Origin: Flavobacteriales bacterium
Lineage (GTDB): Bacteria > Bacteroidota > Bacteroidia > Flavobacteriales_D > Cryomorphaceae
Assembly (NCBI GenBank): GCA_038207425.1
Contig: JBBQZU010000018.1
Coordinates: forward strand, 12,486-76,485
Reading direction: 5' to 3'
DNA length: 64,000 bases
In this document: in pieces, positions 42,001 through 48,000 of the stretch
Numbering within the stretch: the stretch's first letter is position 1
Layout: every line of letters begins with the position of its first letter
Position numbers: made by a program

Positions 42001-45000
42001 GGCGATGGCCGATAGTAACGGTTTTTTCATAACGATAGTTATTGGTTAGCAATTCTGGAAAATTCCAGGGGGGCAATGTAGCAATTAAAGTTGAGTTTTG
42101 TGAAAAGGTGAAAAAAAAATCCCGACCATCAGGCCGGGATTTATCTATTTAAAACAATTTCTATTTAACCCGCTACCTCAAGCACTTTGGCTGAGATAGT
42201 CAACATTGTATTTGCAGGGTCAGTATTTGCTGTAATTGTTACATTTTTGGTTTGCATGTCTTTCTGCTTGCCAGGGCGGTATACCACTTTAATTTCGCCG
42301 GTAGCTCCAGGAGCAATTGGTTCCTTGGGATATTCGGGAACAGTGCATCCACATGAACCTTTGGCATTCTCAATAATGAGTGGCTCTTTTCCTGTATTGG
42401 TAAATTTGAAAATTTTCAGGTTCTCAGTATCTTGGTTGATGGTGCCAAAATCATGTGCCATTTGCTCAAACTTCAAAGAAGTGAGTGGTCCTGAAGGCTT
42501 AGGTTGCTCCAGTTGTGCGGCTCTTTCCCTGCTCGTATTGGCATTCTGAGTAGGATCAGAAGCAGCAATAGCATCGTATGCATTTTGCTGGGCTTCAGTT
42601 GCTGATGCTGCTTTTCTTTCGAAAGTTGCTTTTGCTCCAGTTGGGTTTGCTTCGCCATTTGAACCACCCGCTGAAAGCAGGTATACGTTTACAATAAGCG
42701 CTACTGCAACAACTGCAAGCAGTCCGATGATCACTTTATTCTTCATTTGATGTTATTTTTTGTTTGTTGTGTCAAAATTATAAAAATCGCTTTCGGTCAG
42801 GTCAGGTTTAACATTTCGTTAAAAGCCTTTGTTCGCGAGGTTAAAGGTTGAGTACTGGTTTTGCTTTAGCAATTCAACTGATTTCTGGTAGGTAGGCCAG
42901 TAAGGATTGTACACCTGGTAGTACGCCGAAGTATCCCACAGGTTGCGTGCAATAAGTGCTTTTACACGACCGTCAATAAGCTCCTTAGACTTGGCGTATT
43001 GCTCATCGTCCCAAGTTATTGCTTCTGATATAACGTGCTTCTTAAAAGCTTCCAGCCATGCTTCTTTCTCAAAACCAGCTATGAATAACTCCACGGTAGG
43101 ATATGATTTGAGAATACGTTTTCGGTTATCATTGGCATATTCCAGGGTAAAGCTATTCATGATTCCTTTGCGCACAAGGTCAGAGTTGAGTTTGCTTGAT
43201 TGGGTGGTATCAACTGCCACAAATACATCGGGTAGTATACCTCCTCCACCAAATACCAGCCTTTGATTGTTGGTATAGTATTTTAATGAATCGGGAAAAC
43301 CAATGCTGTCGTTGCTCCACATTTCGCCATTCTCATAGCGCTCCCACCGCTCCATGTTGTAAGCTTCAGTGCCATTGTCATAAGGTTTCTGTATGCAGCG
43401 ACCACTTGGTGTATAATACTTTTGAGTGGTAAGGCGCACTACCGAACCATCGGGCAATTGAATTGGTCTTTGAACCAATCCTTTGCCAAATGAGCGCCGG
43501 CCCACTACCAACCCGCGGTCCCAATCCTGAATGGCTCCCGACACAATTTCAGAAGCACTCGCGGAGCCTTCATCTATCATCACAATAAGACGACCGGTGA
43601 GAAAATCACCACTTGGTGTACTCTTGTAATAACGACGCGGATAGTTCCGGCCTTCTGTATATACTATATTGAGATTTTCTTTCAAAAATTGGTCTGCAAG
43701 TTCTTTTGAGGTATCAAGCAAGCCACCACCATTTCCCTGAAGGTCCAATATTAGGTCCTCCATGCCTTGTTTTTTTAGTTTTGCCATGGCAGCATGAAAT
43801 TCTTCCATAGTGGTTTTAGCAAAGCGGTTCAGCTTTATGTAGCCTATTTTAGTATCGATCATATAGGCTGCATCAAGACTAAAAATGGGTATTTTATCAC
43901 GGATAATTTCAAACTCAAGAACCTTTTTCTCACCCGACCTGTGTATTCCTACATTCACCTTCGTATCCTTCGGGCCACGTAGTTTGTTCGCTACGTCCTC
44001 ATTCGTAATTCCTACCCCTGCTACAACGATTCCTTCAATACTCACTATTTTATCGCCTGCCTGAATACCAAGCTTATCGCTCGGCCCTCCTGATATGGGT
44101 GAAATTACTGTAATGGTATCTTTTAGAATATTGAATTGAATTCCAATTCCTTCGAAGTTGCCTTCAAGGGTTTCATTGGCTTTCTGAACATCCTTGGAAG
44201 AAATGTAGGTGCTGTGGGGATCCAAGTCGGCAAGCATACGCTCGATAGCATCTTCTACCATTAGTTCGGTATCTACGCTGTCCACATAGTTTTGCTCTAT
44301 TTGAAAAATTAGTGCAGTGAGTTTCTCAGCTGCTCTGCGATAAGTGGCTTCTTTTGCTGTTTGGCCGGCAGCCAAAGTAGCAATTGTAATGAAAGCAAAG
44401 GATACGACAAGGTTTCTGAATTTCATATTTATATAATGAGTGTTTAAAGTTATGAAATCTTTAGGTATACTATAACGGTGAATTCCGTTAATCTTGGTTA
44501 AGAAGCTTTTTCCATACGGCATAGAATGCAGCTAAGTTGCTTGTTTTGAAACTATTTTTTTGAGACTTTCGTAGTGGTACCAATATCTATACGTTACAGC
44601 CCTTTCGGGAAAACGAAATGTAAAACAGAAAAGGTAGCCTCATGCTGGAGCAACTGCACCAATTTGAACCCGATGAATGGAAGCGAATCGAATCTCAATT
44701 CGTTGATCATTACACTGCTACCTACAATTTCGTAACGGAAAACCGCGGGTCAGTTCAGGAAGCACGTAATGTATACATGGAGGCATTTGTCTATTACATC
44801 CAACTTCTGGAACTCCAAGGAATGAAGCTGGTTGAAAAGGCGCCGGATATTCTCTACTCATTTTCGCGAAAGCTCTGGTTGCTAAAGCTTGAAAAACGAA
44901 ACGTAGACCTTAATTACGTTAAGCATCGCCGTGAGTATTTTGAGATGGAAGAAGCATTTCACTCCATTGACTCCATAAATCAACGCAGCACCAAAACTGC

Positions 45001-48000
45001 TGATAAGCTCGCTCAGATAGGTGAACCGCACCGCACTATACTACTTGAATGTGTTGGGCGTAAAAAAGCAATCTGCGATATAGCTCCGCGCTTTGGATTC
45101 AGCGATGAGGACAGAGCGTTTCAGCAATTATCAAAAAATGCAAAACAACTCATTAAGCTGATTGAAGGAAAGGATGTGGAGGAAAACGATGCAAAGTTTG
45201 CCTCCCTTTTTCGTTTTGTACTTGACAATCCACAGGCTGAAGTATCAACAATACAAGAAGCTGATAAGGTAACCGTAACTATGATATCGCGTTTGGTGGT
45301 GATGGTGCGCAGCCATGTAACACGCGCTAGCAGGGTAGAGCATCTTCGCGCTATGCAAGAGAAACAGCTTGAACCAAAAACAACTGCTTTGCAAACGGAA
45401 AAGGAAACTAATACAAAGAAAATGAAACCGGTACTCGTATTTTCAATCACTGCATTTATTGCTGTTGCAATATCGGCTATCACTTCGGTAAGCCTTTCGG
45501 GGGGTACTTTTGGCGCTGGCCCTGCTGCCGCTCTCGAATCAGAATCTACAGAGCTTGTGCTTGAAGATGTAGTTGAGGTAGCGCCGGTTCTAGAGCCATC
45601 CTTTGTAAGCAATGCTTTTGCCGTTGCGCCAGAAGGATATTTTATCACTACTGCCGCAGAAATAAGCAGCGCCAATTCGATCCAGCTCATTCATGCCGAA
45701 AGCGGTGAAGGCTTTAATGCATCCGTTGTTTATAATGACACTTTAAATAATCTGGCCATTCTACATTGTACTGATGAAACAAAACCTTTCAATGTTCCTT
45801 TCAGATTTAATCCATTAAAAGTTGCATTGGGTGAGCAGGTCTATTCCATCAGCTACCCTGAAGCCCAATTGCTTTACAGCGATGGCAGTATCTCGTTTAC
45901 CGACAATGAAGGTACAATTGGCGCCAGAATAGGATATGTCGCTGCTGGAACGCCTGTGCTTGCGCCAAATGGACAATTAAACGGTATGACTACCACAAGC
46001 GAAAACGGAATGGCAACATTGATAGAAGCAACGAAGCTCAATGAGATTTTTGCCAAAGCTCAGCAAACCGGTTCTTTTAAAATGAATCTTCCTCAGCGAA
46101 ACAAACTATTCTTTATGGAACGCGCGCAGCAGATAGAAACTATGAAAAAATGTATTTACAAAGTCAAAGTTTTCTATTGAATAAAGGCAACCTTTTCAGA
46201 ATATTACGTTATTCTATTGAGCGACAAGTTCACACAAAATACAGAAGCCTTCCATGCTATGGGAAGGCTTCAGTGTTTTATGGGCGCAGCATACGCAACT
46301 CAATGCATGCCATTTGCCGCAAGGTAGCGCTCTGCATCGAGGGCAGCCATACATCCAGTGCCGGCAGCAGTAACGGCTTGCCGGTAAGTTTTATCAGCAG
46401 CATCGCCTGATGCGAAAACTCCGGGAATATTGGTACGTGTGCTGCCCGGCTGTATTTTCAGATAGCCTACATCGTCCATATCAAGCCAACCTTTGAAAAT
46501 ATCGGTATTCGGGTTATGTCCTATTGCCACGAAAAAGCCGGTTACTACAATATTAAATTCTTCATTGGTAACTACATTTCGAAGACGTGCGCCTTCTACG
46601 GTCTTTTCTCCGGTTATTTCAAGGGTTTCTGTATTCCAAAGTATTTCAACATTGGGCAGATTCATCACCCTGTGCTGCATGGCTTTTGAAGCGCGAAGCT
46701 CATCGCGCCGCACGATCATGTACACCTTCTTGCAAAGTTTAGCAAGGTAGCTGGCTTCTTCAGCGGCAGTATCTCCACCACCTACTATGGCAACTTCCTG
46801 ACCTTTGAAGAAGAATCCGTCGCAAACTGCGCACGCGCTCACTCCATAGCCGTTGAGGCGCTGCTCGCTCTCAAGACCAAGCCATTTTGCTGAAGCACCG
46901 GTTGAGATAATTACGGTGTCGGCCTTTACTTTCTTTTCACCATCAATGGTTATGATGTGGTGCGGGCCGGTAAAGTCAACTTCAGTGGCAAGTCCAAATC
47001 GTATATCTGTTTCGAATCGCAGGGCCTGCTTCCGGAAATCTTCCATCATCTCGGGCCCTTGTGTGCCATCGGGATAGCCAGGGTAGTTTTCTACCTCAGT
47101 AGTTACTGTAAGCTGCCCTCCGGGCTGTAATCCTTGATAAAGCAAAGGCTTCATATCAGCGCGTGCTGCATAAATAGCGGCGGTATATCCCGCAGGTCCT
47201 GATCCTATAATCAGACATTTTACATGTTCCATTTCCTGGCTCATAGGTGCAATTATTTTTTTGAGACTGCAAAGTTAGCAATGCTTTCGGGTATTGCAGT
47301 GCGATATTTATCACCAACATCTATAGGCCCAGTGTTTTGATCTATCAGGGTGCTACAACTACAGTATCCTGACTGCATACGTAAGCAGCCCATATCCCCA
47401 GGCCTCCATTAATATTGCTTATTACATTGTTTGGCGCAGCAAAAGGACTGCCATTGGCTCCTTGCTGGGCTTCGAGTGTTCTGAAAAAATCATAGGTGCC
47501 CGCGTCGGTACTGCAGAATTTTAACACAAAGGTATCGCCCTTTTCAAAGAACCGTGCCGACTCACCAGTATCCGTTGGGCGGGATGAATTGCCAGGCTGT
47601 CCGCGCACAATTCCTACTTCTACAGTGGTGGCGTTAAAGAAATCGTCAGCAAATACTCCGCCCAGTGGTGCGTAGAAGGTAGGGTCAACAGGGTTCTCAT
47701 TTTGATTAGGCCCAATCCGTCGGGTGAAAGCCCTGTAGTTGTTTCCCAAGGTGGCGGGGTCTGTGAGGTAAGCGAAGCAATAGCCAAAGCGGTTGCTGTT
47801 GGCCCAAAGCCTGAACCACACAGAATCGGGTCGCACCAAGCTTGGAATGTGCGCTTTAGATGTAAGTGTATGGCCTTTTGCATTTACCTTAAGTTGATAG
47901 GTGGTATTTTCCACGCCGAATTGTTCTGTTTCTGTGCCCACATAAATGCATATCGGGAATGTTTCTATATTAATGCCTTCAATACCTGTAATCTCTATAA

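Follow-up and report, generated by a model that had tools for sequence, protein, structure and literature searches.

How would a sigma factor work if it were anchored in the inner membrane and carried a broken protease on the other side? The question is raised by an open reading frame in a 64,000-nucleotide stretch (here called the window) of contig JBBQZU010000018.1, assembly GCA_038207425.1, from a Flavobacteriales bacterium of the Cryomorphaceae. An earlier note on this DNA had proposed that a 512-amino-acid (aa) protein combines an extracytoplasmic function (ECF) sigma-like N-terminal part, one transmembrane helix and an inactive trypsin-like ectodomain, forming a trans-envelope signalling protein in one polypeptide. 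The boundaries of its reading frame were exactly reproduced, and the domain order, with an ectodomain of the S1C/HtrA type, was supported by profile comparisons and an AlphaFold2 (AF2) model. As set out below, the protein is probably a single-chain ECF sigma/anti-sigma signalling protein that is released by proteolysis; its features are listed in the table.

Features of the fused gene and its divergent neighbour, with positions in the window
Feature	Residues	Position	Strand	Evidence
Fused ECF sigma/anti-sigma/pseudo-protease gene, 512 aa	1-512	44642..46180	+	Open reading frame; >36 full-length homologs, 21-62% identity, same architecture
Sigma-2-like domain	8-90	44663..44911	+	hhalign to stand-alone sigmas; AF2 helices 10-22, 24-33, 38-59, 61-85
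Sigma2-sigma4 linker VKHRREYFEMEE	91-102	44912..44947	+	Most conserved segment of the 512-aa protein
Sigma-4-like domain	103-175	44948..45166	+	hhalign through region 4 (LGEPxRT...EIA...); AF2 helices 103-126, 130-139, 144-151, 156-175
Cytoplasmic anti-sigma-like helices	183-242	45188..45367	+	hhalign to split anti-sigma N-termini
Single transmembrane helix, N-in/C-out	262-286	45425..45499	+	Kyte-Doolittle; AF2 helix 264-286
Periplasmic juxtamembrane linker, candidate site-1 cleavage region	287-318	45500..45595	+	Per-residue model confidence (pLDDT) <50 for residues 284-313; 21% identity
Catalytically dead S1C/HtrA-fold domain	319-462	45596..46027	+	Triad equivalents A339, N370, A435
Conserved C-terminal tail LPxRNxLF...Q...VKVxY	463-512	46028..46177	+	Common to active split anti-sigma proteins
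ECF-type promoter candidate TGAAAC-N17-CGTA		44547..44573	+	68 nt before ATG; intergenic alignment of 15 loci
Divergent S41 C-terminal processing protease (Ctp/Prc type) with PDZ; candidate site-1 protease		42819..44426	-	Peptidase_S41 E=7e-51; TIGR00225 'prc' 288 bits

An exhaustive phmmer search of 1.8 billion representative sequences with the 512-aa protein returned matches of three sizes. Full-length relatives extended down to 21% identity. A second class, hundreds of proteins of ~340-390 aa (typically ~365), matched residues ~305-511 only, and a third class of ~170-200 aa (typically ~180) matched residues ~10-175 only. A word-indexed search yielded 20 full-length homologs of ~510-555 aa at 39-62% identity. 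In GTDB genomes the fused gene was present at 14 loci, whose labels are Cryomorpha, Cryomorphaceae or Flavobacteriales, with the isolate Cryomorpha ignava QSSC 1-22 among them. Mean pairwise identity within the family was 60% for sigma2, 80.5% for the sigma2-sigma4 linker and 65% for sigma4, 45% for the anti-sigma helices and 47% for the transmembrane helix, 36% for both the S1C-like domain and the C-terminal tail, and 21-25% for the linkers preceding and following the membrane helix. This profile fits a constrained output module joined to a faster-evolving sensor.

The only domain that Pfam recognized in the 512-aa protein was Trypsin_2, and a PF04542 scan that found 18 other sigma loci in the genome missed the fused gene. 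The relationship of its N-terminus to sigma factors became apparent through the third size class. When a profile of the cytoplasmic region of the fused family was compared by hhalign with an alignment of these stand-alone proteins, residues 5-175 matched positions 12-182 with a probability of 99.9% (E=5e-34), spanning both sigma2 and sigma4. Against solved structures, the stand-alone alignment matched SigW over its full length (E=7e-13 over 6-182), followed by SigH, R. sphaeroides RpoE, SigL and E. coli RpoE, and five of ten stand-alone proteins exceeded the gathering score of Pfam Sigma70_r2, with one more falling just below it. The 512-aa sequence used directly in phmmer also reached ~180-aa sigmas, at E-values of 3e-13 to 1e-8. 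The assignment rests on this chain of profiles because the direct tests failed: the profile of the fused family had SigW as its top PDB match at a non-significant E=0.3, and the Pfam and Foldseek comparisons (weighed below) were negative. By these profile comparisons residues 5-175 are a highly divergent but genuine ECF sigma homolog containing sigma2 and sigma4, and the sigma-like part proposed earlier is real, although recognizable by profile methods only. The AF2 model of residues 1-255 (pLDDT 86; predicted template-modelling score, pTM, 0.77) forms one compact cytoplasmic unit with four helices within residues 10-85 and four within 103-175, a pattern consistent with what sigma2 and sigma4 would give.

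The linker that joins sigma2 to sigma4 is usually variable in ECF sigmas. In the fused family it contains the invariant residues V93, H95, R97, E98 and E101 within the motif VKHRREYFEME. A weaker version of the conserved linker was seen in the closest stand-alone sigmas. The strong conservation of the domain, together with a conserved ECF-type promoter upstream of the gene, indirectly suggests sigma function, that is, RNA polymerase binding and promoter-specific initiation.

The region between the sigma domain and the ectodomain modifies the earlier description of a sigma factor tethered by its own pseudo-protease sensor. The tether stands, but the description is incomplete: residues 183-242 resemble an anti-sigma segment, so the protein would be a sigma/anti-sigma fusion. 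Residues 188-286 aligned colinearly with the N-terminus and transmembrane helix of the anti-sigma proteins of the second size class, which are encoded separately from their sigma (hhalign 89%, E=2e-6); Pfam anti-sigma models matched none of the family members. Judged by this alignment, residues ~183-286 are the counterpart of the cytoplasmic helices and membrane anchor of the split-form anti-sigma factor, and residues 183-242 would be expected to bind sigma2/sigma4. As had been claimed, there is one membrane helix: Kyte-Doolittle windows above 1.6 were confined to 260-272, within a single hydrophobic segment at ~261-286. Lysines 258, 259 and 261 flank it on the N-terminal side and an acidic stretch follows on the C-terminal side, which places the N-terminus inside and the C-terminus outside, and therefore the sigma domain in the cytoplasm and the pseudo-protease beyond the membrane.

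The ectodomain was less elusive. Trypsin_2 matched residues 325-449 with 30.5 bits (gathering score 27.6) and matched all 20 family members; NCBIfam DegS gave a faint match to the 512-aa protein (E=0.009), and a family ectodomain profile found the structures of DegP, DegQ, DegS and HtrA1 at E 6e-9 to 1e-4. In the full-length AF2 model, where the ectodomain has a pLDDT of ~85-94, Foldseek retrieved DegS and HtrA1 at E 4e-10 and weaker; superposition on their protease domains gave target-normalized TM-scores of 0.62-0.72, with the best match to DegS. We located the triad by HMMER alignment to H. pylori HtrA and MAFFT alignment to active relatives. The catalytic His, Asp and Ser correspond to A339 (ITTAAE), N370 (NNLAIL) and A435 (VAAGTP), so that the claimed loss of all three positions is upheld and no nucleophile is present; the earlier reading of the serine motif was off by one residue in its register, which leaves that conclusion unaffected. 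Of the retrieved relatives, 107 were of split size and 103 of these have the complete triad; of the 37 of fused size, 36 have lost it, with replacements that vary freely. The sole long protein with an intact triad, P0151, aligned through the protease domain only. An active protease with a non-canonical triad was considered and ruled out, given that the three positions vary freely among relatives. The alignments thus identify the ectodomain as a pseudo-protease with the S1C fold and without S1C catalysis. Pfam detected no PDZ domain in the 512-aa protein or in family members; its place is taken by a 50-residue family-specific tail, modelled as two helices and a terminal strand, through which alignments to the split proteins extend as far as residues 508-512.

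Where did such a protein come from? The second size class provides an answer. These proteins begin with a cytoplasmic helix bearing the anti-sigma-like motif IERYLEGKLSxxE..FE, followed by one transmembrane helix, an S1C domain whose triad is complete (TNxHV, DLAIL, NPGNSGGP; Trypsin_2 E 1e-23 to 1e-25) and the same C-terminal tail as the 512-aa protein. This split form was present in 30 of 151 sampled Bacteroidia genomes (~20%; loci L020-L033) and was not found in the genome studied here at E<=1e-20. At all 14 loci inspected a sigma gene lies directly upstream on the same strand, ~30-50 bp away, and tblastn with residues 1-175 detected it in 13 of them (E 1e-9 to 1e-17). Since the sigma and anti-sigma parts both align colinearly, the 512-aa protein corresponds to the two split products joined end to end, the upstream sigma and the complete downstream anti-sigma. 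The alignments show in this way that the fused gene arose by the joining of adjacent sigma and anti-sigma genes, and that residues 319-512 are the periplasmic DegS/HtrA-like domain of the split anti-sigma, here minus its His, Asp and Ser.

Three split-size proteins have dead triads. Upstream of two of these, P0130 and P0144, is a gene of ~175-199 aa whose product is 29-33% identical to the sigma domain of the 512-aa protein, and the sigma stop and anti-sigma start overlap or are 1 nt apart. Loss of catalysis is therefore separable from fusion. A quick maximum-likelihood tree of the ectodomains, in which long branches leave the deep order uncertain, placed 32 fused sequences in a monophyletic main clade (SH-aLRT 94) and 100 of 103 active split forms together with P0151 in a separate one (SH-aLRT 96); other dead forms fell between the two. 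One strongly supported clade mixes the fused P0090 with the split P0130 and P0144, and hence fusion or fission must have taken place more than once. We tentatively envisage a three-step series in Bacteroidia, in which an active DegS-like anti-sigma became a dead ligand-binding sensor that was then fused into a one-component ECF switch; on the same speculative scheme the sigma would constitute a new ECF group, and its conserved linker may be the site of action of the anti-sigma segment or of RNA polymerase. The active split anti-sigma is, by its sequence, in effect a self-contained RseA-plus-DegS with an apparently active DegS-like S1C domain that has no PDZ. It is possibly the more interesting object for experiments, as it raises the question of self-contained site-1 cleavage; were the active split forms to cleave themselves on sensing envelope stress, this would be a new mode of site-1 processing.

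In Bacillus subtilis the sigma-W consensus TGAAAC-N16-CGTA exemplifies the classic layout of an ECF promoter. Alignment of the intergenic regions between the S41 gene and the fused gene from 15 loci revealed the similar motif TGAAAC-N16/17-CGTA on the strand of the fused gene. With the relaxed form G[AT]AAC-N16/17-CGTA it was present 68-122 nt upstream of the ATG at 13 of the 15 loci, in intergenic DNA that is otherwise poorly alignable; 1000 dinucleotide shuffles gave a mean of 0.05 loci and a maximum of 2. The motif was absent upstream of distant fused or dead-split genes. We infer that TGAAAC-N17-CGTA serves as a promoter and that the fused sigma may be its cognate factor. Positive autoregulation of the gene would be a reasonable extension, as autoregulation is common among ECFs (PMC5826349).

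The neighbouring genes were examined for a protease that could process the fused protein. The divergently transcribed S41 gene has the identity and orientation previously claimed. Its reading frame could alternatively start at an ATG at 44522 (567 aa; 42819-44522); the start at 44426, giving 535 aa with the signal-peptide-like N-terminus MKFRNLVVSFAFITIATLAAGQ, is favoured because homolog alignments begin at or near residue 1 of this form. A DUF1573 gene follows the S41 gene, and a thioredoxin reductase gene (TrxB, window 46300-47244) lies downstream of the fused gene in convergent orientation. The DUF1573-S41 pair diverging from the fused gene was found at 14 of 14 GTDB loci, with the neighbourhood collinear throughout; TrxB is convergent to the fused gene at 11 of these, and the other three end before that point. 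A homolog with 27% identity to the fused protein also keeps the S41-side arrangement, and next to a homolog with 21% identity the S41 gene is again divergent, at a distance of ~5 kb with two type IX secretion system (T9SS) cargo genes inserted. When conservation of the S41 synteny was tested, as the earlier note had proposed, it was therefore not lost at the Cryomorphaceae-type loci or in these two homologs. The genome also encodes an RseP homolog (243 bits, above cut-off).

Some further details of these loci were observed. At the P0090 locus one of the two T9SS cargo genes between S41 and the fused gene encodes a Trypsin_2 plus Por_Secre_tail protein, and at the P0035 locus a pyridine nucleotide-disulphide oxidoreductase gene occupies the TrxB position. 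A glutathione peroxidase gene on the same strand immediately follows both the fused P0090 gene (L059/L060 399-7178) and the dead split P0144 gene (L058 2672-3223). Such redox neighbours (TrxB, and glutathione peroxidase at P0090 and P0144) give only a hint that the theme may be oxidative or envelope stress. At window 44487-44501 (+), ~60 nt ahead of the S41 start codon, GTTAA is directly repeated (GTTAA-N5-GTTAA). This element occurs once in 14 of the 15 fused-gene loci, in the same place (L001-L009, L011-L015), and upstream of S41 in the same relative orientation at the P0090 locus, where the fused gene is 5 kb away (L059:256). Two of 19 genomes without the fusion also have it upstream of S41 (L046:1244; L047:3116), and seven copies are present genome-wide. 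The repeat looks like a putative operator or activator site of the S41-DUF1573 operon.

Domain order and topology support the idea of a one-polypeptide trans-envelope signalling protein, for which we propose the following mechanism. At rest, the anti-sigma helices within the chain and the tether would together keep the sigma domain inactive at the inner membrane. The pseudo-protease domain would act as a ligand-binding sensor of an envelope signal, which might be a polymer, as for RsgI9, or else a peptide or an unfolded protein occupying the remnant of the substrate cleft. Binding would expose the disordered juxtamembrane linker (residues 287-318), the presumed cleavage region, to a periplasmic site-1 protease acting in trans, and the neighbouring S41 Ctp is one candidate for this role by analogy with the action of Prc on IutY. 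The RseP homolog would then cut within the membrane and release the cytoplasmic fragment. Together with RNA polymerase, the freed sigma fragment could direct transcription from TGAAAC-N17-CGTA-type promoters including its own, which would amount to positive autoregulation.

Several observations weigh against this proposal. Among the profile searches named in the earlier note, Trypsin_2 passed its gathering score and hhalign reached sigma factors by way of the stand-alone proteins, whereas the Pfam sigma models matched 0 of 20 family members at E<=1; NCBIfam Sig70_bacteroi1 gave a non-significant E=0.27 with the 512-aa protein, though 140 of its 162 profile positions were spanned. The structural comparison was divided in the same way: the ectodomain superposed on DegS and HtrA1, and Foldseek with the AF2 model of residues 1-255 found no sigma factor in the PDB, returning unrelated helical proteins only (best E=0.5). 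We regard this miss as uninformative rather than contrary because the chain of sequence profiles is very strong, although it counts as a failure of the structural check that the earlier note had proposed for the sigma part. Genome-wide, TG[AT]AAC-N16/17-CGTA had 15 hits where ~33 were expected from base composition, so that there is no enrichment and no regulon was called; the motif was absent upstream of the split sigma genes; and the 18 other sigma genes of the genome could serve the promoter. Autoregulation and regulon are for these reasons unproven. In addition, the sigma is covalently joined to its inhibitor, and an extra step, degradation or displacement of the anti-sigma helices, would be needed after release from the membrane. 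Some of this evidence would suit a different role for the N-terminal domain, namely a PhyR-like sigma mimic that binds neither RNA polymerase nor DNA and serves at the membrane as a decoy or scaffold titrating another regulator, while one of the 18 other sigmas reads the promoter. The failure of Pfam, NCBIfam and Foldseek to recognize the domain would then be natural, as would its non-canonical region-4 recognition helix (EDRAFxxLSK in the family versus the usual ECF pattern tVKsRLxRAR), and there is a precedent, since sigma-like mimic domains are described for PhyR, group ECF15, in partner switching (PMC7826278). A mimic is nevertheless unlikely. No part of the protein is more strongly constrained than sigma2, the linker and sigma4, and the domain aligns with bona fide ECFs colinearly and over the full length; its nearest relatives are ordinary stand-alone sigmas encoded in operons with an anti-sigma; and each sigma/anti-sigma fusion for which we found a characterization functions as a sigma (PMC5411451, PMC5826349). 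No likelier is a ToxR- or CadC-like regulator that remains in the membrane uncleaved, in which a ligand on the pseudo-protease causes a conformational change across the membrane, the anti-sigma helices let go and the tethered sigma recruits RNA polymerase. It would dispose of the difficulty that membrane release alone does not free a sigma tied to its inhibitor, and it suits an ectodomain whose own protease activity is lost, in a protein for which cleavage is a supposition. Against it, all characterized membrane sigma/anti-sigma systems found, IutY included, use regulated proteolysis (PMC5411451, PMC8999054, PMC10328401), an RseP homolog is present, and the linkers on both sides of the single transmembrane helix are disordered and poorly conserved, hence ill-suited to signalling through it. 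We continue to favour proteolytic release.

The role of the S41 neighbour has to be judged separately. Synteny agrees with the earlier suggestion that it is the processing enzyme, and a dedicated role as site-1 protease of the fused protein could draw on the divergent arrangement at the 14 loci and in the two remote homologs, on the requirement for the S41 protease Prc in activating the IutY hybrid (PMC5411451) and on the modulation of cell-surface signalling by Prc and CtpA (PMC10392083). That role is not established, and we consider it doubtful. S41 orthologs occur in 51 of 61 Bacteroidia genomes, with a second paralog in the genome studied here; the S41-DUF1573 pair exists without a fused sigma or TrxB nearby at 6 of 19 loci; and the split systems do not adjoin S41. 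Given this near-universal distribution and the position of the split systems elsewhere, the adjacency carries little weight as evidence. Moreover, the ECF-type promoter faces away from S41, the GTTAA repeat also precedes S41 in genomes that lack the fusion, and TrxB is equally syntenic in a neighbourhood that is collinear as a whole. We thus rejected the view that S41 has been demonstrated to be a fusion-specific partner and retain it as a candidate. A more trivial explanation for the locus is a frameshift in sequencing or assembly that fused two adjacent genes; the genes of split relatives can be 1 nt apart or overlapping, and one error would be enough to join them. One continuous frame is kept in more than 36 independent full-length sequences, 21-62% identical, which come from metagenomes and from isolates such as Cryomorpha ignava QSSC 1-22, and the junction region is conserved as protein. 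An artefact was ruled out on these grounds, its likelihood being negligible.

Elsewhere in the window, 39709-42030 (-) encodes a secreted protein of 773 aa in which a long Gly-X-Y tract resembles collagen. Its counterpart in L001 shows 79% identity, and the remaining loci yielded no match. By eye, the part after the tract looks similar to the intramolecular-chaperone/S74 auto-processing region of phage tail-fibre-like proteins, and a presumed T9SS-type C-terminal sorting region follows. Three of the 18 canonical Sigma70_r2 genes of the genome lie within the window, at 11729-11923 (-), 23708-23908 (-) and 56453-56662 (+); their open frames of 198-234 aa probably encode ECF sigmas.

ECF sigmas are described as the third major pillar of bacterial signal transduction, with Bacteroidota encoding the most per genome (PMC7826278). 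Annotations of the fused protein read 'trypsin-like/S1-C protease' or hypothetical because this sigma group escapes the standard models. The earlier note did not recognize the architecture as a characterized system. This holds for the present combination and lineage in the literature searched, and does not hold for its elements: sigma/anti-sigma fusions have been described for IutY (PMC5411451) and the ECF52 type (PMC5826349, PMC8999054), and an S1C-like, non-protease sensor on an anti-sigma for RsgI9 (PMC12203970). Among the papers found, none reports that a sigma of Bacteroidota is fused to an anti-sigma of the S1C type, nor does any report a split form whose protease is active; this search did not extend to the supplementary files of the ECF re-classification, and a prior listing as an unnamed ECF group is possible. 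The fused sigma/anti-sigma class would now extend beyond Proteobacteria and Actinobacteria. Its study also points to a widespread two-gene relative in which the anti-sigma itself appears to carry an active DegS-like domain, and with active-split, dead-split and dead-fused forms all in existence one can study the conversion of a site-1 protease into a sensor and the effects of joining a sigma to its inhibitor. The practical importance is modest, the hosts being environmental Cryomorphaceae.

One of the closest known systems is IutY of Pseudomonas putida (ECF243), a sigma/anti-sigma hybrid activated by the S41 protease Prc and then RseP (PMC5411451, PMC8999054). In both proteins one chain holds a cytosolic ECF sigma, a single transmembrane helix and a periplasmic anti-sigma/sensor part, and in the present case there is an S41 neighbour, with an RseP homolog in the genome. 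IutY differs in being a proteobacterial protein of 374 aa from a FecI-like clade, with a FecR-type periplasmic domain that receives its signal from the TonB-dependent transducer IutA. The fused protein, from Bacteroidota, instead carries an inactive S1C/HtrA domain and a separate cytoplasmic anti-sigma-like segment, and an outer-membrane partner is not evident; the likeness considered here is one of architecture, likely mechanism and general ECF fold. The ECF52, ECF48 and ECF53 fusions of Actinobacteria, such as SCO4117 of Streptomyces coelicolor, similarly unite sigma, anti-sigma, transmembrane helices and extracytoplasmic sensor. The truncated sigma domain of SCO4117 is active (PMC5826349), and for ECF52-type proteins release by proteolysis has been proposed and positive autoregulation suggested (PMC5826349, PMC8999054). 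These groups are confined to Actinobacteria and have a zinc-finger (ZAS) anti-sigma, a proline-rich linker and a carbohydrate-binding module, in contrast to the fused protein, in which residues 176-262, read by eye, have no zinc-binding motif and the sensor is a pseudo-protease.

In the E. coli sigma-E system, too, a DegS-fold domain faces the periplasm in an ECF sigma/anti-sigma circuit that involves RseA, DegS and RseP. In that system DegS is a protein distinct from RseA and senses through a PDZ domain (PMC8103513), whereas the protease domain described here lacks a PDZ, lies within the anti-sigma chain, is inactive and is joined to the sigma. For the ectodomain, the best PDB sequence match outside the HtrA proteins was RsgI9 of Clostridium thermocellum (PDB 7sjy; E=1.2e-8 over residues 310-498, including the post-protease helix). 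This anti-sigma-I factor is described as having an S1C-like ectodomain that is not used as a protease and binds cellulose (PMC12203970), and the RsgI9 system signals via autoproteolysis of a separate periplasmic domain (PMC10328401). RsgI9 belongs to the SigI/RsgI system of Firmicutes, has no sigma fusion and carries an added NTF2-like domain; of the aligned triad positions it retains His and Asp and differs only in having Thr for Ser, whereas the fused protein has lost all three. With the fused protein there would be two independent cases, RsgI9 being the first, in which a dead HtrA-like domain has been taken over as the sensor of an anti-sigma.

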